DNA of 64,000 bases, taken from NCBI GenBank assembly GCA_000998275.1, contig LCDA01000001.1, forward strand, positions 116,352 to 180,351. The letters run 5' to 3'. This stretch comes from Candidatus Collierbacteria bacterium GW2011_GWA2_42_17 (GTDB lineage Bacteria; Patescibacteriota; Microgenomatia; UBA1400; MFAQ01). A program made the position numbers and the translations under genes. The notes beneath the pieces are model-generated. The model did no database searches and was not told the origin of the DNA. It saw nothing but the letters and a program-made list of their open reading frames with translations. Shown piece by piece: positions 18,252-63,871 of this stretch (position 1 is its first letter; each line of letters starts with the position of its first letter).

Positions 18252-18620
18252 ATGGAACGAAACAAACACGAAAGAAATAAAAAATATGGATGGTTGGTTT
18301 TTTTTGCCCTTGTTAATTGGCTGGTAATTGCTCTAGCCGTGTGGAAAATAGATCCTGACAATATGGCTAACTTTCTTTTTCCGGGAAGCTACCTGCCAAT
18401 GGGTTTGTTGCTGATGGGGGGGATATTTTGGCTGTTATCGATATTAACAATGTCATCAATTAGAGCTTTACGTTGGACTCTGGGGATTATTATTTATATC
18501 TACTTACGAATTTGGGGGTTGGGGTCTGTCTTAAATGGTATTTTGATTCTTGGATTGCTTTCAGTATGGGAGGTATATATCTATAAGAAAAAACCAAAGG
18601 ATGTGCTACACTTTGATTAA
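18252..18620 (+). CDS. Small integral membrane protein with 3-4 transmembrane helices, function unknown.
   Basis: The sequence is hydrophobic throughout. Confidence 0.35.
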   Translation: MERNKHERNKKYGWLVFFALVNWLVIALAVWKIDPDNMANFLFPGSYLPMGLLLMGGIFWLLSILTMSSIRALRWTLGIIIYIYLRIWGLGSVLNGILILGLLSVWEVYIYKKKPKDVLHFD

Positions 18621-31907: not shown

Positions 31908-32507
31908 CTAGAGAGCTGCTCCTTGAAAATTAGGGCAGTTAGCTTTGTACCAAGCCATTGCTTTGGCAGAACAAGAGATTATTTTAGCTTCGTCGAGTAT
32001 TGGCATACAGTCTACCCAACCATTAGCTGGACAGATAAAGTTAGCTGAAGCCGAAGCGGTAGAGATTGGGGTGACTTCCGGAGTAAGAGAGGGAGTAATA
32101 GTAATTATTGGGGTTGGAGTAACAGCAGGAACTTCTGTACTAGACATAGGGAGAAAACGAGCAGCAAGGACTCCAATGAGAATACCAAAGAGAATTAAAG
32201 CTATACCAATAAAAAAGATACGGAGAAAGCCGGAAGAACTAGACGACGAGGGAACCGTTGTTATCGGAAGTGGTGGCATCGGGGGTGTTTCCTGGTACAT
32301 TGGCTGGGAGATCGACTCTGGGGACTGGGACTGGGAGGTTTGATTTGGTGTCTGGGACACTAAGGGTGGATTCGGGTCGCTGCTCCAAGCTGTCGGTGGA
32401 GTTGTCTCTTGGCTTGTCGGGGAAAAAGATGGGGTTGACGTCTGATTTTGGGGGTCGCTGTCCGGGAGAGGATTTTGTGGGGGGTTGATGTTTCGATCTG
32501 GGTCCAT
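31908..32507 (-). CDS. Pro/Ser/Thr/Gln-rich membrane-anchored protein with a small Cys-containing C-terminal domain. The start is uncertain because it overlaps the 3' end of the upstream gene.
   Basis: The N-terminal half is low-complexity, one transmembrane helix is present (IFFIGIALILFGILIGVLAARFL), and the C-terminal region is FICPANGWVDCMP...C...C. About 270 nt overlap out of frame with the ORF at 32239-35469. Confidence 0.35.
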   Translation of the reverse strand: MDPDRNINPPQNPLPDSDPQNQTSTPSFSPTSQETTPPTAWSSDPNPPLVSQTPNQTSQSQSPESISQPMYQETPPMPPLPITTVPSSSSSSGFLRIFFIGIALILFGILIGVLAARFLPMSSTEVPAVTPTPIITITPSLTPEVTPISTASASANFICPANGWVDCMPILDEAKIISCSAKAMAWYKANCPNFQGAAL

Positions 32508-35469
32508 TATTGTTATTTTGATTATTATTAATATTGGTTCCGAAAGTGAGAAGGTTTTTGTTTTTTAAAACATCTAAGACTGATGTTGTAATTCTAAGTT
32601 TACCTCCTTGGGTAGAAGTTTTTGCCAGTTCTAAAGCTTCGTCATAACTTACCCATTTAGAGTCATTGTATTCTTCATCTGAAGGAAATTTCAAATTGGT
32701 AGATGAGGAAGTGGCATAGAGGAAATAATATTTTTTGCCCTTCATGTTGACCTGATTGCCGGAGTCAAGTTTTAGTTCTCGCAACCCTTGTTTATCGGGA
32801 GGAAACTCAATTTTATCGACGGATAAAAGAGTGGGTTTAAAACTTGACTGTTTGACAAAATCTTCACCCAACTCTTCAGTCATTTCACGTTTGAAAGCGT
32901 CGACGAGAGTCTCGTGATTCTCCACTCCCCCTTGTGGCAGTTGCCAGAGTTGATGAATTTTTTGATAAACAAAAAGAATCTTGCCGGAGTTCAAAAAGCA
33001 ACCAACAACACTGGGGCGAAGTCCTTCGGCTCTGTCTTTGTCCAGTTCTTCCAGGGAGGGTTCTTTTGAAAATACTGTTGATGATTGCTTCGTCGCTTCA
33101 TTTCTCTTAATGACTGGGGGTGGGGGTTGTTGCTGTGGTCGATAAGGAGTGGCTTGAGAATAGGAACGGGGTCTGGGAGGTGTGCTGGGGGCATAAATAG
33201 AGGCCTGGGTCATGTCGAGAGCCTCGGTTTTGCGATAGTATTGTTCTTCACTGGCGGCAATAATTTTTTGACGACTATCATCTTTAATTTCCGGAAGTGG
33301 CAGGGTGGTGGCCGAGAAGGGATTAGAGATGGAGGCATTAACAGAGATTTTGACGATGATCTGATAACGAGCAAGGCCAACGAGATCGTCTTGGGTGTAG
33401 AAGTTTCCCAATTCATTCATAAGGCGGTTGGCATCGGCGGCCCCAACTACAAAGCTTATGAGGGTACCGGCATTACCAAAAATAGCATCTTGAATTTCAA
33501 TTGGAAGCTGGGCGGTGTACTGATTGGCAAGAATTAGATTTAAACGATATTTGCGAGCTTCGGAAAGGATTTTTATAAAAGAGGTGGTGGCAAAGTTTTG
33601 AAATTCATCAACATAGAGGAAGAAGTCTTTACGTTCTGTCTCGGCCATGTTGGCACGATTCATGGCGGCAATCTGAATTTGAGAAATAAACATGGCTCCA
33701 AGTAGAGCCGCATTATCTTCACCAATTTTACCTTGAGGCAGATTGAGAATAATAATTTTGCCGTTGTTCATGAGATTTTCAAAATCAACGGTGGAAGTAG
33801 GATGGCTGATAATATCTCTAATTGTGGGTGAAGTAATGAACTGGCCGACTTTGTTTAAGATGGGAGAGATAGCCTCGGACTGAAATTTTTCTGAGTATTT
33901 GTCGTATTCATCATGCCAGAAGTTATGGAGAACAGGATCTTGAACTGCCGAAAGATATTCTTCTCTGAAGGGCTTATTGGTAAGGAGTCGAGGAACATCA
34001 AGAAGGGTGGCTCCCGGCTTACCAACAAGTGTAAGGAGGGTGTTTCTTAAAATATATTCCAACCGAGGACCCCAGGAGTTACCGTAGAGTTTACTAAAAA
34101 TAGAGACTATGCCCGAAGCGACTAGTTCTGAGTAAGCTGGATTTTTAACATAGAGAGGATTGAGATGAAAAGATTTACCAACAACTGAAGGGTCGAGGTA
34201 AGCAACATCATTAATTCTGTCTGAAGGAATGTAGTCTAAGAGGTGCTCGGCCGTGTCCCCGTGAGGATCTACCAAAGCCATTCCTTCACCATGACGAATA
34301 TCGTTAATAGCCATGTTGGCTAAAAGGGTTGATTTACCGGTACCAGACTTACCCAAAATATATACGTGGCGGCGACGATCCTCCCCTTTTTTCATACCAA
34401 AAGAGACAATTCTGTTTTTATATTCTGTTTTGGCAAAGAAATTAATATCCTGCTTTTCCTCTTCGGAGAGATCTTCGGCAATGGGAAGATTTGCCGGTGG
34501 CTCTCCCCTTAAAGTCTTTCCCCAGGCAATACCTTTGATGTTCGCGAGATTTACACCGGGTAAGTGATAAATGGCGGCTATTTCGGCGTAGTTTAGGTAC
34601 TGATATTGATTAGAGTAGCGAGCAGAACGTTCGATAATCATTTCCTTTAACTTTCCGTGAGAAGACGGCTTGACGACTTTAAGCTTAAAGCTATTGCCTT
34701 CGGAAAGAGCGTAGGTACCAAAAGCGGCAGATATTTGAGAAAGAAGTTGCCTGGAGCTCGACTCGCTCTGAGAAATAGCGGCGAGACGAATATCGCAACT
34801 AAAGGCTTGATAGGCAAGTTTTTTCTCGACGAAAGGTTTTTGAGCGTTTGGTTGGGATTTTTCACCTTCGGTGACTGGTTTGGGCTCGAGAGATTTACGA
34901 AGAGCTTTTTGCCAGTTTCCGGGAGCGGCAAAAAGGCAAATTTGAATTACAGCCGCTTGACCTGCCGGAATACGGGAGAGGCTGCCTAAAATGGCGGTCA
35001 TTTGGTCAACCTTTTCGTCTTCGGTGACGTTGAGGGGAAGCTGAGAGGGAGATGAGAGCACCAACTGACCCATTTGAGGCTGGCCGTGAGACAACCAGTC
35101 GGCAAGGTAGTCTTTCATGGGGGTAATGAGAGCAGTTGGATACTGGGCTGCAATTTGAGAACGAACAAGGTGTTCGAGACGTTCCGGACAGGCAATAATA
35201 AAATAGGTAGTTTGACTGAGATTGGCAATTTCCAAGGTAATGGTTTCGTAGGTGTTGAGAAGTCTATCCATGAAACTAGCCTTAAGAGAAGACTTGATGG
35301 AAGCTAAAAACTCAACAAAAGCAGATTGACCCGTAAGTGAGTCTTTGGCAGGACGAATCTGCAGAACCGAATATTTGGGCAAGGCCATAGGATAAGTATA
35401 TACAAAACTAGGCGGTCGCGGGGGTAGAAAGTATAGTTTGAACCGGTTGTTTGGAGCCTGTGTCAACAA
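32239..35469 (-). CDS. TraG/TraD/VirD4-like (TrwB-type) P-loop ATPase, a type IV coupling protein-like DNA-binding ATPase without transmembrane helices, fused to a Nudix hydrolase domain and a low-complexity tail.
   Basis: Walker A is YILGKSGTGKST, followed by LVDPHGD, and Walker B is FFLYVDEFQNF. The C-terminal T4CP-like region reads LANQYTAQLP...GNAGTLISF. After a Pro/Gln linker comes the Nudix box GGVENHETLVDAFKREMTEELGEDF. The final ~130 aa are Asn/Pro/Ser-rich. Confidence 0.6.
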   Translation of the reverse strand: MLTQAPNNRFKLYFLPPRPPSFVYTYPMALPKYSVLQIRPAKDSLTGQSAFVEFLASIKSSLKASFMDRLLNTYETITLEIANLSQTTYFIIACPERLEHLVRSQIAAQYPTALITPMKDYLADWLSHGQPQMGQLVLSSPSQLPLNVTEDEKVDQMTAILGSLSRIPAGQAAVIQICLFAAPGNWQKALRKSLEPKPVTEGEKSQPNAQKPFVEKKLAYQAFSCDIRLAAISQSESSSRQLLSQISAAFGTYALSEGNSFKLKVVKPSSHGKLKEMIIERSARYSNQYQYLNYAEIAAIYHLPGVNLANIKGIAWGKTLRGEPPANLPIAEDLSEEEKQDINFFAKTEYKNRIVSFGMKKGEDRRRHVYILGKSGTGKSTLLANMAINDIRHGEGMALVDPHGDTAEHLLDYIPSDRINDVAYLDPSVVGKSFHLNPLYVKNPAYSELVASGIVSIFSKLYGNSWGPRLEYILRNTLLTLVGKPGATLLDVPRLLTNKPFREEYLSAVQDPVLHNFWHDEYDKYSEKFQSEAISPILNKVGQFITSPTIRDIISHPTSTVDFENLMNNGKIIILNLPQGKIGEDNAALLGAMFISQIQIAAMNRANMAETERKDFFLYVDEFQNFATTSFIKILSEARKYRLNLILANQYTAQLPIEIQDAIFGNAGTLISFVVGAADANRLMNELGNFYTQDDLVGLARYQIIVKISVNASISNPFSATTLPLPEIKDDSRQKIIAASEEQYYRKTEALDMTQASIYAPSTPPRPRSYSQATPYRPQQQPPPPVIKRNEATKQSSTVFSKEPSLEELDKDRAEGLRPSVVGCFLNSGKILFVYQKIHQLWQLPQGGVENHETLVDAFKREMTEELGEDFVKQSSFKPTLLSVDKIEFPPDKQGLRELKLDSGNQVNMKGKKYYFLYATSSSTNLKFPSDEEYNDSKWVSYDEALELAKTSTQGGKLRITTSVLDVLKNKNLLTFGTNINNNQNNNNGPRSKHQPPTKSSPGQRPPKSDVNPIFFPDKPRDNSTDSLEQRPESTLSVPDTKSNLPVPVPRVDLPANVPGNTPDATTSDNNGSLVV

Positions 35470-51617: not shown

Positions 51618-51626
51618 TGTGGATAA
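51618..51626. promoter_or_regulatory. Perfect DnaA box (TGTGGATAA = TTATCCACA) in the rpmH-dnaA intergenic region.
   Basis: An exact 9-mer consensus lies 48 nt upstream of the dnaA start. Confidence 0.6.
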
Positions 51627-51673: not shown

Positions 51674-53056
51674 ATGGAAATTGACGCCAGTCATCTATGG
51701 CAAGCAGTCTGCGGAGAGCTGGTGGTTTCTATGTCTCAAGCCGGTTTTAATGGATTTGTAAAACCCTGTTATATCAAAACGATAACACCAATCGACAACG
51801 AGAGAATAATTGTGGAGCTGGCAGCGCCGACAGCATACCACGTGAGGACAATCGATGAAAAATACTTCAGTACCATTAAACAGGCGATGGAAAAAATATC
51901 ACACAAGAGATGTGATGTGGCTTTAATTGTGGTGGAGGCGCAAAAAAAAGAAAAGGAAACAAAAACCAGTTCGAGAAACGAGAAGGAAGAACCAAATATG
52001 AATTTGTTTGTTTCAAATGAGCCCGACAAACAAGTGGGTAATAATTTAAACCCTAGATACCAATTTGAAAATTACGTAATGGGGAGTTCGAATCGCCTGG
52101 CTTTTGCCGCTGGAAAAGCGGTGGTAGATTTTCCCGGTACCCGACACAATCCTTTGTTTATCTATGGGGGAGTAGGAGTGGGTAAAACTCATCTAATGCA
52201 TGCCGTAGGTCACGAGTTAGTTAAAAAAGGGATTGGTAAAGTGGTTTATGTAACCTCGGAGCAATTTACTAATGATTTGGTGAATTCACTCCGATCAAAA
52301 ATGACTGAGGCTTTTAAGAAAAAATACCGTCAGGTGGGAGCGCTGCTGATTGATGATGTCCAGTTCTTTGGAGGAAAGGACTCAACACAAGAGGAGTTTT
52401 TCCATACTTTTAATGAACTAACAAATAAGTCGGCACAGATTGTGATGACATCTGATCGTAAACCTCAGGACATCGAAGGTTTAGAGGATAGATTGAAAAG
52501 TAGATTTTTGGGAGGAATGGCCGTAGATATCGGTTTACCGGACTACGAAATGAGATTGGCAATCTTAAGACAAAAAGCTCAGGAAATTAAAGTCGAAGTT
52601 GAGGATGGAGCCTATGAATTAATGGCAAATAACTTTAATACTAATGCTCGAGAACTTGAAGGTACTTTTGTAAAGTTGGCGGTTGGAGCAAGTCTGGAAG
52701 AGGGAGTACTGACGAAGGAAATGGTGCAACAAACAATGGGACTGCCGGCGAGTTTTATAAAGGAAGTTAAGGTAAGACCTATTAAGGTAGTATCAACAGT
52801 GGCTAAATATTTTGATTACAGAAATAAAGATTTATTGGGAACAAGCAGAAAAGCCGATTTGGTGGTGGCCCGCCACATTGCCATGTTTTTATTACGTGAT
52901 ACCTTAAATATTCAGTTGGAGAAAGTGGGGGAGATTATGGGTGGAAGAGATCATACCACCGTGATGCACGCAGTCGAAAAAATGAAGATTGAAGTAAACA
53001 AAAATGCCGATGTAAGGCGAAAAGTAACAGCCATTAAACAGGCGTTATACACTTAG
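51674..53056 (+). CDS. dnaA: Chromosomal replication initiator protein DnaA.
   Basis: The AAA+ Walker A is GGVGVGKTHLMHAVG and Walker B is LLIDDVQF. The C-terminal DNA-binding signature reads IAMFLLRDTLNIQLEKVGEIMGGRDHTTVMHA. Confidence 0.95.
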   Translation: MEIDASHLWQAVCGELVVSMSQAGFNGFVKPCYIKTITPIDNERIIVELAAPTAYHVRTIDEKYFSTIKQAMEKISHKRCDVALIVVEAQKKEKETKTSSRNEKEEPNMNLFVSNEPDKQVGNNLNPRYQFENYVMGSSNRLAFAAGKAVVDFPGTRHNPLFIYGGVGVGKTHLMHAVGHELVKKGIGKVVYVTSEQFTNDLVNSLRSKMTEAFKKKYRQVGALLIDDVQFFGGKDSTQEEFFHTFNELTNKSAQIVMTSDRKPQDIEGLEDRLKSRFLGGMAVDIGLPDYEMRLAILRQKAQEIKVEVEDGAYELMANNFNTNARELEGTFVKLAVGASLEEGVLTKEMVQQTMGLPASFIKEVKVRPIKVVSTVAKYFDYRNKDLLGTSRKADLVVARHIAMFLLRDTLNIQLEKVGEIMGGRDHTTVMHAVEKMKIEVNKNADVRRKVTAIKQALYT

Positions 53057-53360
53057 GTATCCACATTTTATCCCCAACACGTGGATAACTTGGAAAAAAG
53101 TGGATTAATAAGATTAAATTAAAAATTAGTGTTGATAAGGGAGTAAAGTTATCCCGAAAATTATCAACAAAAAAAATGAGTTGTTCTGAAAATAATAGTC
53201 TTTAAAAATAGATAATTGTTGCAAAAATACGGATATAACAAACGAAGATAATTTAATAACAAGAAAGACAGGCGATGAGCAAAGCTATAATCAACAAATC
53301 AACAGACATTACTACTACTGTTACTATTTTAGATTAATATAATAATTAGAAGAAAATTCT
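53057..53360. promoter_or_regulatory. Probable oriC: the dnaA-dnaN intergenic region with a cluster of DnaA-box-like 9-mers and an AT-rich unwinding region.
   Basis: The box-like 9-mers are gTATCCACA (53057-53065), TTATCCcCA (53068-53076), GTGGATAAC (53081-53089), GTGGATTAA (53100-53108), GTTATCCC (~53149) and TTATCAACA (53161-53169). An AT-rich tract of over 150 nt follows. Confidence 0.65.
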
Positions 53361-54473
53361 ATGAAAATAATTGTCGAATCAGGAGAACTTAAAAGAACTT
53401 TAGGAATAGTGAGCCGAGGTGTGAGTTCAAGACCTCAGCTACCAATATTGTCAGGGGTGATGCTTAAAGCGAAAGATAATGAAGTAAGTTTGGTGGCGAC
53501 GGACTTGGAAATAAGTTTTTGGCTCAGTCTTTCAGCTAAGGTTGAAGAAGAGGGTGAAGTGGTGGTACCGGCAAAGTTGTTTTCAGAGCTGGTGTCGAGT
53601 TTTCCTTCTGGAAATGTAACTTTGTCTGTAGAAAAACATGTAGTCAAAATCGAAGTAGATGGCATTGTTTCTGAAATTGTGGGTCAGGGAGCTGAAGACT
53701 TTCCGAGTGTTCCGAGAGCCAATAAGGCTCAAGTCGTCCTTCGAAGTGGAGATTTTAGACAAAAAATAGACAGAGTGTGTGTGAGTGCGGCTCGTGATGA
53801 TACAAGACCAGTGTTGACAGGAGTGCTGTGGGAGATCAATGAAGAAAAGGTGTCTTTGGTGGCGACAGACGGATATCGTTTGTCGGTTGATAGTCTGACT
53901 TTGTCAAAAACAGAACTAGAGAAAGAAACACGACTAATTCTTCCGGCAAGATCACTGCAAGAAATTTCGAAAATGTTGGGTGAAACAGGAGCGGATGATT
54001 TTTCGTTGGAGTTTAATAAAAGTAATCAACAGGTCATTTTTAAAGTAGGGGAGATTGAGGTAACTTCGAGACTAATCGCAGGCGAGTTTCCTCCTTATCA
54101 ACAGATCATGCCGAACACTTACTCATCAAGAGCGGTATTTGGCAAAGGAGAGATACTAGAAGGCGTCAAAAGAGCCAGTTTGTTTGCAAGGGACAATGCT
54201 AATATCGTAAAGCTACAGATGGAAAAAGATAAAGTGGTGGTGAGAGCAGAAAATTCACAAGTAGGAACAAGTGTGAGTAACGTCCCGGCAACGACAGAAG
54301 GTGATGAATTAACGGTGGCTTTTAATGCTAGATATCTGCTGGATTATTTGGCTAGCTGTACTTCAGAAACAGTAATTTGGGAAACTGAAGGTGAGCTAAA
54401 ACCAAGTGTATTTCGAAATGAGGATGAGAAAACCTGGGTTCAGGTAGTGATGCCTGTTCGGGTTCAGGAGTAA
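53361..54473 (+). CDS. dnaN: DNA polymerase III beta sliding clamp.
   Basis: The N-terminus reads MKIIVESGELKRTLGIVSRGVSSRPQLPILSGVMLKA. The three-domain 370-aa length and the position after dnaA fit the sliding clamp. Confidence 0.9.
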   Translation: MKIIVESGELKRTLGIVSRGVSSRPQLPILSGVMLKAKDNEVSLVATDLEISFWLSLSAKVEEEGEVVVPAKLFSELVSSFPSGNVTLSVEKHVVKIEVDGIVSEIVGQGAEDFPSVPRANKAQVVLRSGDFRQKIDRVCVSAARDDTRPVLTGVLWEINEEKVSLVATDGYRLSVDSLTLSKTELEKETRLILPARSLQEISKMLGETGADDFSLEFNKSNQQVIFKVGEIEVTSRLIAGEFPPYQQIMPNTYSSRAVFGKGEILEGVKRASLFARDNANIVKLQMEKDKVVVRAENSQVGTSVSNVPATTEGDELTVAFNARYLLDYLASCTSETVIWETEGELKPSVFRNEDEKTWVQVVMPVRVQE

Positions 54474-54474
54474 T

Positions 54475-55494
54475 TTACTTTGAGGCAGGTAAAGCATAGA
54501 TGCCGGACTGTTGGGTGACGTTGGTGCCGGTTAAATTTCCTTCGAGAATATAGATGGGAAGGTAGACATTTTGAATTTGAAGATAGCCAATTTGTGATTG
54601 GGAGACAGAAAGATCTATTTTTTTACTGGAAGCTGTTTGAAAATTTACATCAAGATCAGGAGAGGCATTTAATCTTTGAGCAGAGTTAGCTAATTTTTTA
54701 ACATCAACGAAAGGATAAATAACTAATTCCTTGCCTAGGGCGACGGAAGTAAAGCCACCAACAATAGAGATACTATGAATATTTAGATTGTGATCAAGAT
54801 AGAAGGTAAAAACAGCACCAGTTTCCGACTGAGCGAGGACAGGAAATTGATTGATTGACTGATAGAAGGAAACGCGAACAAGATCGGCATTTTCTATGGT
54901 TGAAGGAGAAGAATAAATATTAAAAGTTTTATAGTAATCGACCCTTTGATTTATAAGGGTGGCTTCAACATCTTCACCAAAAAGATCCTTGATGATTTTG
55001 CGAGCGGCAGTGAGACTATTTTCTTGAGTAAAGAGAGGTCCATCTTGAACAGGAGGATTATTGGTGGAGTAGATAATGGAGTTGTTTTTGGTGTTAATAA
55101 CAAGAGAGTGTTTGCTGTTTGACCAGATGGAGATATTAGTGTCTTTGACAGTGACCTTTTGAGAATTTGAAAAACCGAGTAAAGAAGGAAGTCTGTTCTG
55201 ATTATCAGATGAAGTTAAAGGCGAAACAAGTGAGTATTCATAAAGTTTTTCCGGTGTTTGGGGATCTTTAACTTCGTTCCATTTGATATTTAAAACAGGA
55301 GTGGGTAGGGGAGAGGTAGTAGTGGAGGTAGTGGTAACAAGAGAAGGAATAAGAGGTTCGGTGCTTGGAGATTTTTCGGTTTGTAAAACACCAGTAAAGG
55401 CGTTGATAACAATAATTAAGACGACAACAACGGCAAGAATTATTAAGTTGGTTCGGAGTTTTGATTGGGTAAAAAAATTAAGGATGTTTTTCAT
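54475..55494 (-). CDS. Secreted, signal-anchored protein with a Thr-rich linker, function unknown. It is the last gene of the T4SS-like module.
   Basis: The N-terminal transmembrane helix is LIILAVVVVLIIVINAF, followed by TTTSTTTSPLPTP and a ~260-aa extracytoplasmic domain. Confidence 0.35.
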   Translation of the reverse strand: MKNILNFFTQSKLRTNLIILAVVVVLIIVINAFTGVLQTEKSPSTEPLIPSLVTTTSTTTSPLPTPVLNIKWNEVKDPQTPEKLYEYSLVSPLTSSDNQNRLPSLLGFSNSQKVTVKDTNISIWSNSKHSLVINTKNNSIIYSTNNPPVQDGPLFTQENSLTAARKIIKDLFGEDVEATLINQRVDYYKTFNIYSSPSTIENADLVRVSFYQSINQFPVLAQSETGAVFTFYLDHNLNIHSISIVGGFTSVALGKELVIYPFVDVKKLANSAQRLNASPDLDVNFQTASSKKIDLSVSQSQIGYLQIQNVYLPIYILEGNLTGTNVTQQSGIYALPASK

Positions 55495-55503
55495 ATGGTT
55501 ATA

Positions 55504-58167
55504 TTAGTTAGTATAAACCTGAGGTCTATTAGAACAGCTGGTTATACCAGGGTAAAGTTCACCAAGGGGGCAGTTTTCGGAAAGTTGAATTCCACCGGCC
55601 GGACATTGATTGTAAAGAAGACCTTTGTATTCATAGTGAAGGTGAGGTCCCGTTCCAGCAGTACCGGTGGTTCCTAAAATAGAACCAATTTCGACGCTAC
55701 CTCCGACGGCAACATCAATACTGGTGAGATGAGCATAAACAACTTTAAAAGCGGTGCCATCTTCGAGGACAGAATCAATAATGAGAATGTCGGTATTGAG
55801 ATACTCCGATGAAAAACCGGCAAAACTAACAACACCAAAGGTGGTACTAATAACAGGAGTACCAAGAGGGGTACCAATATCAATAGATTGATCATAACCG
55901 GTGTTACCATGAGAACCTTTTCCCCCCGGACCTTGAGTGAGGATATAACCTTCACCAACCGGCCAGGTATTGGGACATCCAGGAAGAATTGTACCGGTAT
56001 AGGCAGTTTTGGGGGTCGATTCAAGTTGAACAAGAGTGGATATTAAAGGAGCAACGACAATGGAGGTGATGTAAAAGAAAAAGACAATAAGAGTACCGGC
56101 GGTAATGATACCAACAGCGGAACTAGCAGCAACCACAGTAGTGGTGCCAAGACCGGAAAAAAAGGAGACTACTCCTCCCGCAAAAGAGGCGATACCCATG
56201 GCGGGGATAGCAAGAACGTCACGAGTTTTTACTTCTTCACCATAGACAGATCTGGCAAGAGCTTTAGTAAAGCCAATAATTTTTTCGCCGACCCAAAAAG
56301 AGATATCAATTAAGACGGCAAGAAGAAGTCCGAGACCGGGAACGACATTGGCAACTTGAGCACCAGCTTCGAGAGCAACTTTGATACCAACTTTGGCACC
56401 GACTTTAACGGCAGCTTTGGTGGCGGCCTGTTGAGCAAGTTTTTTAAAGGTTTCCTTGAGACCGTTTTTGAGAAGCATTTCGGCTCCTTTTTTGAGAGTC
56501 TCGTTTGTAAGGCGTTGGACTAATTGTCTGGTAATAAATTCACCGGCTTTTCGACCCGCCCAAGATCGAAGAGTTCCCCAAGGATCTTGAATAACCCGAA
56601 AAACAGTACCAAAACCTCCGGGAATTTTATCTGAGACTCTTCCAAAAAATTTTGAAACTGAACCGAAAGTTCGGCCAATTCTGGTAGATGTTTGAGAAAT
56701 CTCTTTTCCTAAAAGAGACTGGGAGATCTTTCTGATTTGGCTGCCGGCAGAGTCAAAAATATCTTTGCGTGTGGTATAAAGTTTTCCTAGAGCAGAGTCG
56801 GGTTTATTTTGGGCAAAAAGACGAGCTTTGGTGAGAAGCTGGGGAGTAAGTTCTTTGCCATATAAAAGAACGGCTTGCGGAGACAAATCAGAATTTTGTG
56901 TTTGGGGGGTGTTGAGAAGACTGGCGGCATATTCAGCTTGATAACCTGAGTTGGGACGGAGAGTCCCCGGAAAATTTTGTCGAAGGGCATCTTCAAGAAG
57001 ATGAGCATCATCCATAGGGGTGGGGATATGGGCTTTAATACCGTTAATCTCAAGATTGTTATGAATTGAAACAATATTTTTATTGGCTAGTTCAATTCGA
57101 TCCTGGAGATCTGGATCGTGAGAAAGTCTTTCTTCACGGTTTTTTTCAAAGCCTTTGAAAGACTCCGTTTGTTTGGTTATTAAATCGGTAAGTTGGGTCG
57201 AATGAGATTCTATTGAGGCCGAAAGATGTTCATTTTCAGCAATAAGATTTTTTATTTCAAGAGATAATTTTTTCTTTTCTGATTCGGGCAGAGAGGAAAT
57301 TTCATCTTGGAGACTAATAATTATTTGTTCATTATCGGAAATTTTTGTTTCAGATACGGTAGCTTGACTATTTAAAGAAGTCACTTCTTGATAAATAGTG
57401 GAAACAAAACCTCCGGGAATGGTAGCAAGATTAGTTTTATCCGACTCTGCAAGAGATGAAATGTCGATTTGGAGAGTAGAAGCTTGAATTGCCGTGTCGA
57501 GATCTCGGACACCAACGAGATTAAGTTCGGCTGCTGAGGAAATAATTTGCTCTTGTAATTTAGGAGAGAGTTTGGAAAAGCCAGTATAAGTATGGGCAAC
57601 TTCTTTGATGGCAACGAAGGATGAGTTTAAAGCTTCTTTTTTGGATCCTGATTTAGGAGACCCAAGAGAAACAAGAAGGTCATCTACCTGTTTAAAATTT
57701 TCTCCTTGAGATTGTCTTCTTTCTCGATTGGCCAAAGCAAGATCTTTAATTTTAGAATGAGCGATGGCAATTTTGACTTGTTCGGCAACCGTTTTTTGAG
57801 GACTTGATTTAATTTCTTCACTTTCAAGTAAGGCAAGATTTTGTTGATACTCGGCAACCAGAGCTTCAATTTCCGGAGGAATTGAAGCTGCTTGTTCTTT
57901 AGTTGTTTCCTTTTTTATAACCTCTTCTTTTTCTTTTTCCGCTTGTTTTTCTAGATTGGCGATGTAGTCGGTGACAGCAGAAATAGGAAGATTTTTGAGA
58001 AATTTGGAGTAGCTGTTGGTGAAAAAATATTTTTCGCCAAAGTATTTTTGGGCAAGGGAAAAGATTTTTAAATCATCTTTGGTGAGAGAGGCTTCCGCTT
58101 TTTGAGAACTGAGAAGATCAGTTACTTGATGAAGCTGCTGGATAACAATTTCTTTTCCTGATGCCAT
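55504..58167 (-). CDS. Protein of 887 aa with a long N-terminal coiled coil, a transmembrane cluster and a C-terminal M23 metallopeptidase domain. It is a putative T4SS-associated cell-wall hydrolase, comparable to the PrgK/TcpG functional class.
   Basis: The first ~550 aa are heptad-rich and Glu/Lys/Leu-rich. A hydrophobic block follows, from VPGLGLLLAVLIDISFW to GTLIVFFFYITSIVVAPLISTL. The C-terminal M23 core reads GYDQSIDIG...TGPHLHYEY. Confidence 0.55.
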   Translation of the reverse strand: MASGKEIVIQQLHQVTDLLSSQKAEASLTKDDLKIFSLAQKYFGEKYFFTNSYSKFLKNLPISAVTDYIANLEKQAEKEKEEVIKKETTKEQAASIPPEIEALVAEYQQNLALLESEEIKSSPQKTVAEQVKIAIAHSKIKDLALANRERRQSQGENFKQVDDLLVSLGSPKSGSKKEALNSSFVAIKEVAHTYTGFSKLSPKLQEQIISSAAELNLVGVRDLDTAIQASTLQIDISSLAESDKTNLATIPGGFVSTIYQEVTSLNSQATVSETKISDNEQIIISLQDEISSLPESEKKKLSLEIKNLIAENEHLSASIESHSTQLTDLITKQTESFKGFEKNREERLSHDPDLQDRIELANKNIVSIHNNLEINGIKAHIPTPMDDAHLLEDALRQNFPGTLRPNSGYQAEYAASLLNTPQTQNSDLSPQAVLLYGKELTPQLLTKARLFAQNKPDSALGKLYTTRKDIFDSAGSQIRKISQSLLGKEISQTSTRIGRTFGSVSKFFGRVSDKIPGGFGTVFRVIQDPWGTLRSWAGRKAGEFITRQLVQRLTNETLKKGAEMLLKNGLKETFKKLAQQAATKAAVKVGAKVGIKVALEAGAQVANVVPGLGLLLAVLIDISFWVGEKIIGFTKALARSVYGEEVKTRDVLAIPAMGIASFAGGVVSFFSGLGTTTVVAASSAVGIITAGTLIVFFFYITSIVVAPLISTLVQLESTPKTAYTGTILPGCPNTWPVGEGYILTQGPGGKGSHGNTGYDQSIDIGTPLGTPVISTTFGVVSFAGFSSEYLNTDILIIDSVLEDGTAFKVVYAHLTSIDVAVGGSVEIGSILGTTGTAGTGPHLHYEYKGLLYNQCPAGGIQLSENCPLGELYPGITSCSNRPQVYTN

Positions 58168-58175
58168 GAGTTGAT

Positions 58176-60017
58176 TTAAGTAGTTTGTTGCTTACGTGCT
58201 TCGAGAATTTCCGAGGGTTTAGTGGTGGCCAGAGCATGTTCGTCGGGGGAGGAAATAACTCTTATGGCAACATGGTTTTGTCCAGCAAAGAAAATACCTT
58301 CACCTACACCAGCCGAGACCAAAAGCTGTTTTTCTCCTTGAGAGAGATAAAAGACTTCGGCAATTTGATTGATGGCGGCAGAAGATTGTTTTAGAAGAAA
58401 TTTGAGAGCAGAGTTGGTAATGATGGCTTTACCATAAGGGGAAGCTAAAAAGTCATCTACATTCTGAGAAATGACGGTAACCCCGAGATAGTATTTGCGA
58501 GCACGTTTGACAAAGCCTTGGAGAATTTTGGCAGAGTCTTCGAAACGCATAAGATACCAGGCTTCATCGACAATAAGCATCCGCTTTCGGAGATTTTTGC
58601 GAATCTCGGTCCAGACAAAATCAAGAATCATAAACATAACAATCGGACGGATTTCGTCGGCAAGATCACGCAGAGAAAAAACGGTTATTGGAGCATCAAT
58701 ATTGATATTTGATTGTTGATCAAAAGTGCCCTTGATACTTCCCATGACGTAGCGTTCGAGTCTGGCAGCCAAAACTTTAGCGGTCTGGTCTTCCATACCA
58801 ATGATGGCGCGGTAGAGGTCTTCCATTCGAGGAGGTTCTTGGGTATGAGTGGCAGGATCGTCGGTAATGTTTTTTTGACGATAGGTGAGAACTAGAGCAC
58901 GATTCATAGTGGCTTCTTCCATGGGAGACATAGCACCAATCATTATTTTAAGAAGGGACATGAGGAAGAGGTATTTATAACCCATTTCGTCTTCGGTACT
59001 TTCCGCAGGTCGAGCAATTTGAAAAGGATTAATTTTATGAGGAGAGCTGGAAGAAAAAGAAATATAGTTACCACCAACTGCTTTGGTAACCATTTCATAC
59101 TCATTTTCCGGGTCAAGAATAATAATTTGGGTGTCAAACATAAGAGAGCGGAGAATTTCCAACTTGACGGCGTAAGATTTTCCGGCGCCAGCCGTGGCCA
59201 GAACAAGCATATTGGCATTTTCCAGAGAGAAACGATCAAAAATGATAAGGGAGTCGTTGTGGGCATTAATTCCGTAAAGAATTCCTTGATTGTCGGAGAG
59301 TTCGGAACTGGTAAAAGGAAAGGTGGTGGACAGAGCGGTAGTGTCCATGTTTCGGGTAATCATTAATTTGTCTTTACAGTAAGGAAGGGTGGTCTTGAAA
59401 GCATCCTCCATGGAAAGAGAGGCAACTTTGCTGATGATCAGAAGAGAGGCGAGCATACTTTGAACCTGAGAGGTGACGGTGTTAAGTTCTTTTTCGGACT
59501 CGGCAGAGATACTGATGTAGAGAGAAAATTGAAAAAAACGTTCGGCTCCCTTAACGAGTTGTGCCTGAAGAGACTTGGCATCTTCAAGAGCGGCTTCGGT
59601 AGCTGCTTGGGGAATACGACCCCTTTCAATATCCGTGTTGATCTCGGCTTCCATCTCGGCCAGACGGCGCCTGAGATTGTCTAAGGTGTCTTTGGAGTCA
59701 CTGGGATAGACGTACATAGAAATATCAAGAGAGTGATTGAAGTTTATGAGAGGGGCGAGCCAGTTGGCTGAGACATAGCGAGGATAACCGGTGATAAAGA
59801 GAGTACGGATGTAGTTGTCATCGATTTTTATAAAGGAAAAATCAACTTCAATGGAAGAAGGAGCTAAGACATCCTGAATTGAGGCGGCATTGGCGGTGTC
59901 TTTGATAGCCGAAAGGGGAGCTCGAGGTTTTTCTTCCTTGGGTGTGACAGGAGATGCCGCTACTGTTGGTATAGTTTCGGTCTTTTTGGCACCAAGAGAG
60001 AAGAGATTTAACCCCAT
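58176..60017 (-). CDS. VirB4/TraC/TrsE-family type IV secretion ATPase, short Gram-positive-type form of 613 aa.
   Basis: Walker A is LVLATAGAGKSYAV and Walker B is RMLIVDEAWYLM. The C-terminal motif reads VTVISQNVDDF, and the N-terminal VirB4-type domain contains YIRTLFITGYPRYVSANWL. Confidence 0.7.
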   Translation of the reverse strand: MGLNLFSLGAKKTETIPTVAASPVTPKEEKPRAPLSAIKDTANAASIQDVLAPSSIEVDFSFIKIDDNYIRTLFITGYPRYVSANWLAPLINFNHSLDISMYVYPSDSKDTLDNLRRRLAEMEAEINTDIERGRIPQAATEAALEDAKSLQAQLVKGAERFFQFSLYISISAESEKELNTVTSQVQSMLASLLIISKVASLSMEDAFKTTLPYCKDKLMITRNMDTTALSTTFPFTSSELSDNQGILYGINAHNDSLIIFDRFSLENANMLVLATAGAGKSYAVKLEILRSLMFDTQIIILDPENEYEMVTKAVGGNYISFSSSSPHKINPFQIARPAESTEDEMGYKYLFLMSLLKIMIGAMSPMEEATMNRALVLTYRQKNITDDPATHTQEPPRMEDLYRAIIGMEDQTAKVLAARLERYVMGSIKGTFDQQSNINIDAPITVFSLRDLADEIRPIVMFMILDFVWTEIRKNLRKRMLIVDEAWYLMRFEDSAKILQGFVKRARKYYLGVTVISQNVDDFLASPYGKAIITNSALKFLLKQSSAAINQIAEVFYLSQGEKQLLVSAGVGEGIFFAGQNHVAIRVISSPDEHALATTKPSEILEARKQQTT

Positions 60018-60044
60018 GATTTAAGTATAACCTAAGGTCATTAA

Positions 60045-60698
60045 TTAGGAATTAGCGGGGATATTGGTGGGGATTGAACTTATGGTGGTTGAGCTCTGGT
60101 TGTAGATGGTGTAGAAGAAGGTAACGAGTTCGCTGGTAGTGAGTTGAGAAGCTTTGAGACCAATACGGGCAAATTGTCTAATCAAATGGTCTCGACGAGG
60201 ATAAAGAACGGTAGAGGCCTTTTCTTCAATATAGACAAGGTCAAAGGGCGGTTTTTGAGGAGCTTTGGCAAAAGGATTAAAAGATGATTTTGAGAGACCG
60301 AGTTCAATTTCGGAGAAAGGAATAATGACATAAAATTTCTTTTCCAAAACACGATTTTCCTTGACTAGAGATTTAACAAATTGACGATAAGCCAGAAGTT
60401 GCTCCTTTATTTTTTGTGAGGAGACGGATTGAATACGAGTGTCAATAAGGCCAAGGTAGTCAGAGATATTTTTCCTTTGGGAACGGACAAGAATTTGAAT
60501 AGGGAAAGAAAGAGAGTTTAAGAGACCGGCGTAGGCATAAATGGTGGCATCTTGTTCTTCTTCGGAGAGAAGGTTGAAGTTTATAGCTGTAGTTTTGAGA
60601 ACCAGAGCAGCTGAGCCATCTTTAAGGAAAACAAGGTGATCTTTAATGGCGTAGATATCGAGATGTTCTTGGGTGGAGGCTTTGATGTTGTCGGGCAT
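60045..60698 (-). CDS. Hypothetical soluble protein of 217 aa encoded between the PrgI-like protein and VirB4; a T4SS-module component of unknown role.
   Basis: The call rests on operon context only. No motifs were recognised. Confidence 0.3.
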   Translation of the reverse strand: MPDNIKASTQEHLDIYAIKDHLVFLKDGSAALVLKTTAINFNLLSEEEQDATIYAYAGLLNSLSFPIQILVRSQRKNISDYLGLIDTRIQSVSSQKIKEQLLAYRQFVKSLVKENRVLEKKFYVIIPFSEIELGLSKSSFNPFAKAPQKPPFDLVYIEEKASTVLYPRRDHLIRQFARIGLKASQLTTSELVTFFYTIYNQSSTTISSIPTNIPANS

Positions 60699-60700
60699 GT

Positions 60701-61594
60701 TTATTGAGCTTGAATTTTTAGAGGTTTAACAATTTCTCCGGTGAGTTCTAAGGAGTAGGGAGCAAAAGAAAAACCTTCTTTTTCGGCAAGAATTTGAAAT
60801 AGACCGGAGTCTAGAGGGCGAGCAAACATAAACTGTCCGAGTTTGTTGCTCTTGGTAGCACGGAGAGTGAGGTTGTCTTTTTTGATTTCGACCAAAACAG
60901 AGTCAAGAATGTGGCCGGAGGGAGTTAGGGTAAGGCCAACGAGTGTATTGGGTGTGGTGGAAGTAAAAGGAATGGGAAGATTTACTGTGGGGGCGGGAGT
61001 TTTTGTTGATGTGACAGGTTGGGTTGGGGGTAGGGGCTGAGAGGAAACGTTGGGTGTTGGGATTGGTTCTTGAGTGGTTGGCATTGGTTCCGGAACAACA
61101 ACTGTTGGGGTAACAACTGTTTCGGTAATAGAGGTAGTCACAATTGATTGGGGAACGGGGGTGTTTGGCACGATTTCTGGTTGCTTTGGAGAGATAACAG
61201 GTGGTTGGGTTATTTCAATACGAGCATTGGTAACCGGTTGAGTGACTTGGAGATTGTTTTCTTTGGTGGGGACGGCGGTTTCGGTTCCGGCAGCAGTGGC
61301 CGGAGTTCTTTTCCAGGAGTATTGGGTGGGTGAGTAGATTGATTTAATGAAGGCAATCAACCAGACATCAAGAGAACGACCTTGAACAGGGAGAAAGGCC
61401 ATACCAACACCAAGAAGAAGAAAAGCAAAAACAATGGGATATTTAAAGAAGAAGGGTAAGGGAATACTGTAGGCAATGATGGCAAAAATGATGCAGACAC
61501 CAAGAGAAGCAAATTGTTTTAAAGTCATGTCACCAATTAGCCTGAAGCGGTAACTACTGATGTCTTGGGGTAAAGGATGCTGTTGAATGGCCAT
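60701..61594 (-). CDS. VirB3/PrgI-like two-transmembrane protein with an N-terminal cytosolic peptide, extended by a Thr/Pro-rich linker and a C-terminal beta-rich domain.
   Basis: After the cytosolic N-terminus (QQHPLPQDISSYRFRLIGDMTLKQFASL) come transmembrane helices VCIIFAIIAYSIPLPFFF and IVFAFLLLGVGMAFL. A ~110-aa Pro/Thr/Val/Gln linker follows, then a folded C-terminal domain. Confidence 0.4.
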   Translation of the reverse strand: MAIQQHPLPQDISSYRFRLIGDMTLKQFASLGVCIIFAIIAYSIPLPFFFKYPIVFAFLLLGVGMAFLPVQGRSLDVWLIAFIKSIYSPTQYSWKRTPATAAGTETAVPTKENNLQVTQPVTNARIEITQPPVISPKQPEIVPNTPVPQSIVTTSITETVVTPTVVVPEPMPTTQEPIPTPNVSSQPLPPTQPVTSTKTPAPTVNLPIPFTSTTPNTLVGLTLTPSGHILDSVLVEIKKDNLTLRATKSNKLGQFMFARPLDSGLFQILAEKEGFSFAPYSLELTGEIVKPLKIQAQ

Positions 61595-61681: not shown

Positions 61682-63871
61682 ATGTCAGAAATACAGTTAA
61701 GTGAGAGAATGCAACGATTAATCGAAAAAAAAGGTGGTATTCCCGGTGTGGACAATGTGAGTTTACCAAGAGAACAGAAAACGGAAACTGTACCTTCAAC
61801 TGAAATTGAAAAGAAAATTGACGAATATAATGCTAGTGACGATTTAAGTTTGGTATTGGCAGTTGTTTCTCGTGAGGATCGATCAGATACGACAAGATAT
61901 CTGGAGCATAAAGAGAAGGTTAATGAAGCAAATAACAGATTAAAAGAACACGGAGTAGACGTGGATTCCTTTACAAGACGAGATATACAAGTTGGAACTG
62001 AAGAAGGAAATAAAGTTTTGGGACAAAGAAAAGCAGTTTTGCGAGAAATGTTGGTAAAAATTAAGGAAGATAAAGATTTAAACGATGAGGAAAAAAAGAT
62101 TGTTGACATAATAAATTTGAAGGTGAGTGATTTAAGGAGAAATGAAGAGTTTCAAGGAGAAATAAAAAAAGAAAAACAAACAACAATTGTTCCAAAACAA
62201 GAGAAAGAAAATCCTCCACAAGAAGAGAGAAAAAAATCTGAGACTGATCAGAGATTGGAAAATATTGGGAGATATCCAGCATTGCTCGAACAGAGAAGAG
62301 CGCTGATGACGTTAAGAGATATGTTGGTTAAGAAAGGTGCCTCTCCCGAGGATATTGAGAAAGTGAACGGGGCAGCGAGGGCTCTAACAGAAAAGGAAAA
62401 CCAAAGGATTCAAGAATATAGAGAAAAAGGGGAAATGAGACCGGAACTAGAAGAGTCTTTGAGTAGATACAATGTGGAACTAGAGAAGGCTTATGATATG
62501 TCAGCAAACATAATCAATGTCTATCAGATGTCCCCAATGGAAGGAGTACTAACAAGATCTTTGGCAGAAGTGAGGAGTGTTGGTGTCGATGGTGAAGATC
62601 TTGCTAAGGAATTAGAAAAAGAACTCTTGGACATGGGTCTTTTGCACGACCTGAGATTAATGGTGAATAGTAGGGGGGCTGTTGACGATTCGATGTTGAA
62701 ATACGCATCAGAATTAAAAGGAAAACAATTTGATAGATTAATTCATCTACAAGACAGAATGTCCCAACACGATAATGATGGTGTGACGTTGTGTTTGGCG
62801 AAGATAGATGAAGAGGCAAGGAGATCATATAACGATATCAACGGCAACAAAAACAATATTTTTAAATTGGAAGATCCAAACCTGGAAGATAGAGTCCTCG
62901 AAGCAACAAAGAGTAATAGGCTACACTATTTAATTGCGAGGGATCTTTATCGAGTTACTGGCGGAGAAGCAAGGTACGGTGTGGCCGGATATGCTCATCA
63001 AGATGGTAGTAAGGGGAATGCTTGGGTAATTGAAAAGAATGGTGATGATAATAATGGAGCTTTCTTTAGAAAAGCAATGAATAAGAGAAGAGATCTCGTG
63101 GGGGCGGTGGATTCAACAGCTAGTGGAAATTATGTCTTAAGATACTGGCCAGAACTTTGGAAACATCTTGACCCCGGAGTGAGTAGTTTTTGGGAAAAGC
63201 TATGGTCCGACGCAGAAAAAGCTGCTGGGGAAAATGCTAGTTTTTTTAAAACTCAGAGCGAAATCCGTATGAAAGTTGATAATGAGGTTGGTATTCCACC
63301 AAGAGAGTATGCTGTTTTGACAGTAGAAGCTTTAAGAAACTTGAGGCTTGGGGTAGAAGAGCCAGGAAAGGTGTCTTTAGATAATGAGATAGCGTTTAAT
63401 ACATGGCTGGAAACCATAGGAAAAGTGTCAACGACGATGTCAAAAGAGATACAGTACATGAGCAACCCAAACTTTAAATCTTTTCAGTCGATACTTGGAG
63501 TAGATTATTACCCAGTGATAATGAGAGAAAGATTAAAGGATGGAAAAAAAATTAGGATTAATAGAGAACAATATTTATTGGAAAGATTGGGAGATCTGGT
63601 TGAAAATTACAAAAAATCTCAGACGATGTCACTGACTCAGATGGCAAAAGAATTAAATGAATATAGAGTTTCTGGTTTTTTGTTCAGAACTGACGAGGAA
63701 CTGAAGGATTTTAAGAAAAGATATGGAATTCCAGAAGGAGGAAAGGCCGAGGATCTTCAAAACTTAAAAGATTTTGGAAAAAAACTTACTGGGAAAGATA
63801 GCGGTGCCCGTAAGGTGGCGGGTAGTGTTGCGGGCGATATTCTAGAAAAAATTCTTAAGGGAGGATTCTAA
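61682..63871 (+). CDS. Hypothetical 729-aa protein with a Lys/Glu-rich coiled-coil N-terminal half and a globular C-terminal half, transcribed divergently from the T4SS-like module.
   Basis: It has no transmembrane helices or signal peptide, and no catalytic motif such as a relaxase HUH was recognised. Confidence 0.3.
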   Translation: MSEIQLSERMQRLIEKKGGIPGVDNVSLPREQKTETVPSTEIEKKIDEYNASDDLSLVLAVVSREDRSDTTRYLEHKEKVNEANNRLKEHGVDVDSFTRRDIQVGTEEGNKVLGQRKAVLREMLVKIKEDKDLNDEEKKIVDIINLKVSDLRRNEEFQGEIKKEKQTTIVPKQEKENPPQEERKKSETDQRLENIGRYPALLEQRRALMTLRDMLVKKGASPEDIEKVNGAARALTEKENQRIQEYREKGEMRPELEESLSRYNVELEKAYDMSANIINVYQMSPMEGVLTRSLAEVRSVGVDGEDLAKELEKELLDMGLLHDLRLMVNSRGAVDDSMLKYASELKGKQFDRLIHLQDRMSQHDNDGVTLCLAKIDEEARRSYNDINGNKNNIFKLEDPNLEDRVLEATKSNRLHYLIARDLYRVTGGEARYGVAGYAHQDGSKGNAWVIEKNGDDNNGAFFRKAMNKRRDLVGAVDSTASGNYVLRYWPELWKHLDPGVSSFWEKLWSDAEKAAGENASFFKTQSEIRMKVDNEVGIPPREYAVLTVEALRNLRLGVEEPGKVSLDNEIAFNTWLETIGKVSTTMSKEIQYMSNPNFKSFQSILGVDYYPVIMRERLKDGKKIRINREQYLLERLGDLVENYKKSQTMSLTQMAKELNEYRVSGFLFRTDEELKDFKKRYGIPEGGKAEDLQNLKDFGKKLTGKDSGARKVAGSVAGDILEKILKGGF

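Follow-up and report, generated by a model that had tools for sequence, protein, structure and literature searches.

A five-gene block beside dnaN and dnaA in a Collierbacteria genome as the probable core of a chromosomal Patescibacteria-type type IV secretion system

In this study, which was based on a stretch of 64,000 nucleotides (nt) of contig LCDA01000001.1 from Candidatus Collierbacteria bacterium GW2011_GWA2_42_17 (the window), we asked what kind of machine is encoded by a block of five genes that lies at positions 54475-61594, next to dnaN and dnaA. Patescibacteria account for much of bacterial diversity and are host-dependent, and their type IV secretion system (T4SS) is the only one that was shown to be essential for the growth of its owner, a Saccharibacterium. 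An earlier note had interpreted the block as a T4SS-like module, and this interpretation was supported by the family matches, by the synteny and by the finding that neither the ATPase nor its neighbours had the identities that were considered beforehand as contrary outcomes. With a probability of roughly 0.85, we regard the block as the core of a chromosomal Patescibacteria-type T4SS of Collierbacteria-like Microgenomatia which, under the same joint estimate, goes back to the conjugative apparatus of bacteria with a single membrane (Gram-positive, MPF-FATA) and lost its relaxase.

All five of the described open reading frames (ORFs) were present and mutually co-oriented on the minus strand. 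In the order of transcription, they encode a PrgI/VirB3-like membrane protein of 297 amino acids (aa; 61594-60701), a TrsD-like protein of 217 aa (60698-60045), a VirB4-family T4SS ATPase of 613 aa (60017-58176), a membrane scaffold with a cell-wall hydrolase of 887 aa (58167-55504) and a bitopic membrane protein of 339 aa (55494-54475). The intergenic gaps of 2, 27, 8 and 9 nt correspond to an operon-like packing, and a promoter and terminator scan gave nothing above chance. The plus-strand ORFs of dnaA (51674-53056) and dnaN (53361-54473) were recognised by orthologues which, in the same arrangement, carry Pfam Bac_DnaA and DNA_pol3_beta, respectively. The adjacency to dnaA-dnaN that was claimed earlier holds; the block is convergent with dnaN, and the stops of dnaN and of the 339-aa gene are 1 nt apart. 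On the far side of dnaA, the minus-strand genes rpmH, rnpA, yidD and yidC and a jag-like gene were found.

The assignment of the ATPase to the VirB4 family proved sound, with a match to the NCBIfam family conju_CD1110 (E 7.5e-112) that exceeded the curated cut-off (375 bits vs 325) and a Pfam P-loop_TraG match with E 4e-28. The best solved relative was the VirB4 of Thermoanaerobacter (PDB 4AG5, E 1.2e-44), while TrwK was matched with E 3e-6, and the translation contains an intact Walker A (GAGKS) and Walker B (LIVDEAW). Among approximately 8000 homologues, those with the highest identity (99%) carry the names Candidatus Collierbacteria or Microgenomates group bacterium. For the best 120 homologues, ten source names were listed: nine are from the Collierbacteria, Woesebacteria, Microgenomates or Patescibacteria group, and one reads Spirochaetia. 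Judging by its sequence, the protein is a Gram-positive (MPF-FATA, CD1110) type T4SS ATPase. An FtsK- or HerA-type ATPase, which was the first of the contrary outcomes, was rejected, as the HerA equivalog was matched only with E 0.062 (11.8 bits), DUF87 covered the P-loop only and the FtsK-type matches were at noise level.

The 217-aa protein, which had been described as unknown, could be assigned to a family and is TrsD-like or VirB4 N-domain-like. It matched the NCBIfam profile VirB4_plasma (E 8.9e-8) at profile positions 127-281, and the 613-aa VirB4 continues the same profile at positions 291-877. The same colinear split across TrsD and VirB4 was observed on the profile phrog_2666. Moreover, the protein matched the TrsD/TraD family (E 3.6e-4), although the score of 20.4 bits is far under the family cut-off of 200 and the relationship to the pGO1-type TrsD is therefore remote. 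Its 81% identical orthologue in a related locus, L001, carries the TraC-like Pfam domain PF26593. Because of the colinear split, the TrsD match and the TraC-like orthologue, we consider the 217-aa protein to be a separately encoded N-domain of VirB4; no transmembrane (TM) helix was predicted in it. It is worth mentioning that phrog_2666 is labelled 'terminase large subunit' in PHROGs, yet it is colinear with TrsD and VirB4 (E 9e-29); this label is probably wrong and could misguide the phage annotation of such loci.

The first gene encodes a protein that matched Pfam PrgI at residues 8-90 (E 4e-7, 30.9 bits vs a cut-off of 27) and has two predicted TM helices at residues ~22-73, followed by a Pro/Thr-rich linker and a C-terminal domain of ~80 aa. 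This domain is conserved across Microgenomatia loci with 36-99% identity, and its matches to transthyretin-like beta-sandwiches, although weak and sub-threshold (E 0.035-0.09), make it look like a beta-sandwich. Because there are two TM helices, both ends of the protein should be on the same side of the membrane. Of the earlier description as a PrgI/VirB3-like two-TM protein with an extracellular extension, the family and the two helices were confirmed, whereas the extracellular location was not established.

The description of the fourth product as a TM protein that ends in an M23 peptidase also agreed with our results. The 887-aa protein consists of an N-terminal all-helical domain of ~590 aa, which is presumably cytoplasmic because it is without a signal peptide, a region of 3-4 TM helices (~601-715) that was modelled at low confidence, and a C-terminal M23/LytM metallopeptidase (760-848; Peptidase_M23, 57.4 bits). 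The predicted structure of the latter has an M23 fold that includes a match to the LytM domain of PrgK, and its closest solved relatives are lysostaphin- and zoocin-like M23 enzymes. It could also be observed that the window encodes two neighbouring FemAB-family genes (7999-9836, plus strand), which suggest a peptidoglycan with interpeptide bridges, i.e., the substrate type of lysostaphin- and zoocin-like enzymes.

At its N-terminus, the 339-aa protein carries a membrane anchor (residues ~10-41), which is followed by a Thr/Pro-rich linker and by tandem ectodomains, each composed of a helix plus an antiparallel sheet. The anchor looks uncleaved and there is no obvious signal peptide, and the previous designation as a secreted Thr-linker protein was therefore abandoned. 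The ectodomains are of the PepSY/cystatin/NTF2-like type with VirB8-like and NTF2-like structural matches; the best structural neighbours in a model of moderate confidence were the PepSY-type YpeB and YycH rather than VirB8. No sequence link of the family to VirB8, TcpC or PepSY was detected when 8- and 71-member profiles were compared with the PDB or when all of the members were searched against Pfam. At 90% identity, the family forms 8 clusters, and at 50% identity, 102 representatives were counted among 1.84 billion; neither the 887-aa nor the 339-aa protein had detectable sequence homologues outside the Collierbacteria group. Both proteins are candidates for the subunits that a published survey with hidden Markov models (HMMs) did not detect in Microgenomatia: the 887-aa protein for the VirB1 role and possibly for a part of the VirB6 role, and the 339-aa protein for the VirB8 role.

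The second line of evidence is the position of the block. A scan of one genome per species yielded 80 loci that were compared by tblastn, and the loci with enough flanking sequence were used as the denominators. PrgI and TrsD were directly upstream of VirB4 in 52/55 Microgenomatia-like loci, and in 43/45 a convergent dnaN was found 0.15-6.4 kb downstream (median 3.6 kb) and was followed by dnaA; yidC was present beyond dnaA in many of them, while rnpA could be recognised mostly in nearer relatives. In the more distant Saccharimonadia-like loci, TrsD and VirB4 were adjacent in all of the 12 that could be assessed, and dnaN-dnaA was located 5.7-8.3 kb downstream in 7/11. The synteny next to dnaN is kept across Microgenomatia and partly in Saccharimonadia, and the orthologous block of a relative is annotated as PrgI, TraC-like, P-loop_TraG and Peptidase_M23. 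Many of the contigs with this locus (L004, L005, L010-L014, L034 and others) are titled Pseudomonadales, Gammaproteobacteria, Spirochaetia, Nevskiaceae or Methanoperedens, and such titles of public metagenome-assembled genomes are probably taxonomic mislabels.

These observations align well with the findings of Quinonero-Coronel et al. (2025), who surveyed 3,035 Patescibacteria genomes (PMC12102498). The authors found that the VirB4 clade of Patescibacteria is monophyletic and nested in MPF-FATA, that TrsD is the most abundant accessory component and mostly adjoins virB4, and that PrgI/VirB3 homologues are present. Very few relaxases were detected and homologues of the type IV coupling protein (T4CP) were mostly far from virB4; VirB6 was scarce in Microgenomatia and VirB8 almost absent, while some of the VirB1 homologues had Peptidase_M23 domains (PMC12102498). 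Moreover, the genes that stood most often beside virB4 in Microgenomatia and Paceibacteria were dnaA, dnaN, rnpA and rpmH (PMC12102498). Wang et al. (2023) showed that the homologous genes SEML1_0006-0019, which are without recognisable coupling or relaxase proteins, are essential in Southlakia epibionticum (PMC10633639), and a 2025 review counts the Patescibacteria T4SSs among the established branches of the superfamily (PMC12857230). The locus of this study resembles these systems in being chromosomal and close to dnaA/dnaN, in its MPF-FATA VirB4 with TrsD-like (27 nt upstream) and PrgI/VirB3-like genes beside it, in the wall hydrolase directly downstream of virB4, in the lack of a relaxase in the 64 kb and in a T4CP-like gene that is far away. 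It differs in that no VirB2-like pilin array or VirB6 homologue was found in the window, in that no sequence homologues of the two genes after virB4 could be detected beyond the Collierbacteria group and in that PrgI has an additional C-terminal domain. Because of this match to the published T4SS (PMC12102498, PMC10633639, PMC12857230), both the system and its placement must be regarded as already known; the locus is a clean and compact Microgenomatia example and not a new kind of system.

The block was also compared with the characterised conjugation systems of Gram-positive bacteria. As is typical for MPF-FATA systems (pCF10, pIP501, ICEBs1, pCW3 and CTn2), the genes for VirB4, for a VirB3-like protein and for a peptidoglycan hydrolase lie together, whereas a coupling protein, a relaxase and an oriT on one mobile element were not found in the window and there are no element boundaries. 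pCF10 of Enterococcus faecalis is a plasmid that has a VirB6-like PrgH, the coupling protein PcfC, the relaxase PcfG, an oriT and adhesins; its PrgK has additional SLT and CHAP domains and is without the ~590-aa N-terminal helical domain, and its VirB4 is a single protein unlike the split TrsD and VirB4 observed here. The trs system of pGO1/pSK41 (TrsC, TrsD, TrsE = VirB4 and the hydrolase TrsG) is the sole characterised MPF-FATA subclass with a separate TrsD (PMC12102498), which is homologous to the N-terminus of VirB4, and it has no recognisable VirB6; in the block, too, no VirB6 match was found. It is, however, carried by plasmids and serves conjugation, for which it has both a relaxase and a coupling protein, and the best match of our VirB4 was CD1110 (CTn2) and not TrsE. 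The VirB8-like bitopic proteins TcpC (pCW3) and TraM/TraH (pIP501) showed no sequence similarity to the 339-aa protein.

A working model can be proposed from these parts. VirB4, whose identity and intact ATPase motifs were observed, would be the motor, which the two-helix PrgI/VirB3-like protein may hold at the membrane by analogy with VirB3-VirB4 systems, and the TrsD-like subunit, as the counterpart of the detached VirB4 N-domain, would work together with it. The 887-aa protein would place its membrane helices next to the motor, with its M23 endopeptidase tethered to them; this enzyme may open the cell's own peptidoglycan and thereby let the apparatus pass through the wall, in the manner of PrgK, TraG and CwlT. 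The 339-aa protein, given its fold, topology and gene order, could form a wall-spanning VirB8-type scaffold. Together, the parts would build a translocon across the envelope, comparable to that of Gram-positive T4SSs. The order of the genes, PrgI/(TrsD)/VirB4/hydrolase/small bitopic protein, mirrors prgI-prgJ-prgK-prgL of pCF10, which supports the 339-aa protein as a VirB8-type scaffold and the 887-aa protein as a VirB1-type wall opener that, with no VirB6 detected, may also lend helices to a membrane channel.

The components of the block differ strongly in their rates of evolution. Between L001 and the window, VirB4 was 83% and TrsD 81% identical, compared with 72% for DnaA and 66% for DnaN, while the 887-aa and 339-aa proteins shared only 32% and 25% of their residues. 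In some Collierbacteria (L065:1970-5611, also L066 and L068), virB4 encodes 1213 aa because an insertion of ~600 aa with LAGLIDADG-like motifs splits the Walker A (GAGK|S...VHN|SYAVKL), an arrangement suggestive of an intein that contains a homing endonuclease. Inteins typically occupy highly conserved sites in essential proteins. Within the same genome pairs, the VirB4/TrsD motor has diverged less than DnaA and DnaN have, and some relatives carry the apparent intein in Walker A. These comparisons indicate that the motor is under strong constraint, and the system is probably important to the cell; the evolution of the two downstream genes, in contrast, is far faster than that of VirB4.

The turnover concerns whole domains as well. 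When 42 homologues of the 887-aa protein were compared, the N-terminal part and the TM body were conserved and the C-terminal enzyme (55504-56000 in the window) was variable: M23 was found in 25, a C39-like domain in 7 to 8 and Amidase_2 in 2, and in the rest no enzyme was detected. The variants with swapped hydrolases appear to lie beside VirB4 proteins that are 90-98% identical to that of the window, a pairing that was verified directly for L004 (11854-14598), in which a 96% identical VirB4 is followed by a 914-aa protein with a C39-like end and by a 155-aa anchored protein in place of the 339-aa one. Among close strains, this adjacent anchored protein is replaced or has diverged to 25-60% identity. 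On a complete Woesebacteria chromosome (L043, 11805-15370), VirB4 is followed by a 984-aa protein, a 192-aa anchored protein and dnaN, and the 984-aa protein combines a long polytopic stretch rich in Gly and Ala with an HExxH (HEVSHH) domain, which takes the place of a wall hydrolase at the C-terminus. The homology of the 887-aa and 339-aa proteins to their positional counterparts in L043 and in the relative with the 96% identical VirB4 could not be demonstrated, as hhalign gave probabilities of 16%, 38% (over 11 residues only) and 1.5%. By this comparison, the downstream proteins share an architecture with their Woesebacteria counterparts and not a demonstrable homology.

Several observations weigh against a Patescibacteria-type T4SS of this composition. 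The membership of VirB4 in the Patescibacteria clade rests on the best hits and on PMC12102498. An exchange of hydrolases among near-identical strains is unexpected for an enzyme that opens only the cell's own wall. No Pfam or NCBIfam match to VirB6, PrgH or TcpH, i.e., to a VirB6-like polytopic channel protein, was found in the block, and the 887-aa protein, which could itself substitute for VirB6, has only 3-4 TM helices. No tandem small two-TM ORFs that would correspond to a VirB2-like pilin array were found in the 64-kb window, and two small membrane ORFs at 18252 and 22721 were without a family match. Such arrays, which are frequent though not universal in Patescibacteria T4SSs, are abundant in Microgenomatia (PMC12102498), and pilins are essential in the Saccharibacterium; the negative result applies to the window, and an array could be located in another part of the genome. 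Finally, the requirement for epibiotic growth was shown only in S. epibionticum (PMC10633639); for the present lineage, the conservation of VirB4 beyond that of DnaA and the P-loop intein of relatives speak for it only indirectly. The statement of the earlier note that there is no recognisable relaxase, VirB6, VirB11 or pilin was borne out within the ORFs scanned in the window, among which no integrase was found either.

The only coupling-like gene of the window is located ~19 kb from the block (32239-35469, minus strand) and encodes a Nudix-fused VirD4/TrwB-like P-loop ATPase of 1076 aa with a Walker A near residue 365 and a C-terminal Nudix domain (RppH/Ap4A-hydrolase-like) at 815-950. It matched NUDIX (E 2.4e-12) and DUF87 (25.5 bits), while TrwB_AAD_bind and TraG-D_C were just under their cut-offs and the VirD4-like NCBIfam family CD1115 (E 1e-8) was far below its own; TrwB (E 3.9e-5) and DotL (E 1.2e-4) were matched in the Walker A region only. 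No TM helix was predicted. The combination of a VirD4/TrwB/HerA-like ATPase with a Nudix domain is an unusual fusion. The previous nomination as a coupling-protein candidate is retained as far as the VirD4-like match goes, but this match is weak; the protein is a possible relative of coupling proteins with a putative link to the system. Because there is no relaxase and because the sole coupling-like gene is distant, weakly matching, without TM helices and fused to Nudix, the system most likely does not conjugate DNA. By analogy with the proposal for the homologous system of S. epibionticum, its more likely cargo would be proteins or other macromolecules that pass between the epibiont and the host cell, and both the export of proteins or effectors and the import of nucleic acids are possible.

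The latter option leads to a different reading, which we consider rather unlikely, namely that the block is a nucleic-acid import apparatus similar to Helicobacter ComB or to the archaeal Ced system, in which VirB4 would take up host nucleic acids for an organism that is unable to make nucleotides. The absence of a relaxase, which makes conjugative export unlikely, is compatible with it, and the Nudix domain in the fusion with the candidate coupling ATPase is of the RppH/Ap4A-hydrolase-like type, which acts on nucleotide or RNA 5' ends. VirB4 weakly matches CedB (E 1.9e-15) and CedD (E 3.6e-5), and the Nudix fusion matches CedD (E 9.7e-5). Furthermore, a 2026 preprint proposes the acquisition of host RNA by a cultivated relative, in which tubular structures may be T4SS pili (10.64898/2026.06.21.733656). 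However, the Ced scores are far under their cut-offs (56.6 bits vs 700 for CedB and 22.6 vs 600 for CedD), whereas CD1110 passes with 375 bits, and the window yielded no component specific to import, be it of the ComB, the Ced or another type. In S. epibionticum, the loss of comEC abolished competence and did not affect viability (PMC12857230), and the essentiality of the T4SS is therefore not explained by the known DNA-uptake route.

It is also conceivable, although improbable, that a former T4SS was reused purely for remodelling the envelope or peptidoglycan, e.g., in connection with division, and no longer transfers anything, which would make it comparable with FtsEX-EnvC or SpoIIIA-SpoIIQ.

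The closest characterised relatives of the individual parts are found on Gram-positive plasmids and integrative conjugative elements (ICEs), i.e., CD1110 of CTn2, TrsD of pGO1 and PrgI of pCF10, and the block could accordingly be the remnant of an integrated ICE or plasmid that came to lie beside dnaN by chance. The composition of the locus contradicts this. The GC content of the block (41.8%) matches that of the window (41.7%), its codon usage is close to that of the other minus-strand genes (distance 0.11), and no att-like or direct repeats flank it. No relaxase, integrase or phage structural or hallmark domains were found in the window ORFs scanned, the sole tRNA of the window (25978) is ~28 kb away, and the other ORFs have housekeeping functions (metG, leuS, groEL, GAPDH, tsaD, tatD, UvrD/AddAB-type helicases, LCP and FemAB). 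Additionally, the position next to dnaN-dnaA is kept across class-level distances and VirB4 is more conserved than DnaA. We therefore rejected a mobile remnant as highly improbable; native GC content and codon usage, the lack of repeats and mobile genes and the conserved synteny all argue that the block belongs to the core chromosome, which is what the earlier note had claimed.

A prophage remnant, in which a packaging or ejection ATPase is accompanied by a tape-measure or ejectosome protein with an M23 lysin, is scarcely credible: VirB4 and TrsD do match phrog_2666 with its terminase label, the M23 domain matches tape-measure, endolysin and gp16-type ejection proteins, and Foldseek returned the pre-ejectosome of cyanophage A4 (9k2v_A, E 8e-5, 799 columns), but the PHROG matches of the 887-aa protein are limited to its M23 domain (~720-850), 9k2v_A gave a TM-score of 0.10, and no PHROG matches were found for the PrgI-like and 339-aa proteins, so that the neighbours of the ATPase do not score as phage tail proteins.

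A further point is whether the neighbourhood of the probable T4SS is indeed an origin of replication. The spacer between dnaA and dnaN (53057-53360) contains five one-mismatch DnaA-box 9-mers within 113 nt (53057-53169), and a perfect DnaA box is located at 51618, upstream of dnaA. The GC content of the spacer is 26%, and 24% over 53170-53360. At the level of sequence, these boxes and the low-GC stretch are a classical oriC signature; the folding of the spacer was uninformative. The plus-strand GC skew, however, is strongly positive across all 64 kb (+0.23 overall), and the skew at third codon positions is +0.27 to +0.72 in nearly all of the genes examined on both strands, with the first ORF (8-793) near zero. 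No change of sign occurs at dnaA in the window, nor was one found on either side of dnaA in the Collierbacteria relatives, in which the skew stays positive 10 kb beyond the left end of the window, whereas in Woesebacteria-like relatives it does switch sign at dnaA. Consequently, the claim that the block abuts the origin holds for dnaA/dnaN and the DnaA-box cluster, but in this lineage only, the missing switch weakens both this claim and the published rationale of gene dosage. We found no literature on a missing skew switch at dnaA in Collierbacteria.

These features allow a tentative and rather doubtful proposal, i.e., that the outward parts of the otherwise highly conserved system may be fast-turnover specificity cassettes directed at the envelope of the host and not at the wall of the cell itself. 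Separately, replication in this lineage may not proceed bidirectionally from dnaA. If the former is true, the type of hydrolase domain would predict the host range, and domain swapping offers a testable handle on host specificity. If replication is not started bidirectionally at dnaA, the published explanation of the locus position by gene dosage near the origin would fall. The fast downstream genes, the hydrolase swapping, the apparent VirB4 intein and the skew anomaly were not found in the cited literature on Patescibacteria T4SSs.

On its other side, the block is flanked by a divergent plus-strand gene (61682-63871) that encodes a highly charged protein of 729 aa without a family. Relatives have a gene of similar size at this position (658 aa in L001) with almost no detectable similarity, and L005 alone matches, with 36% identity.

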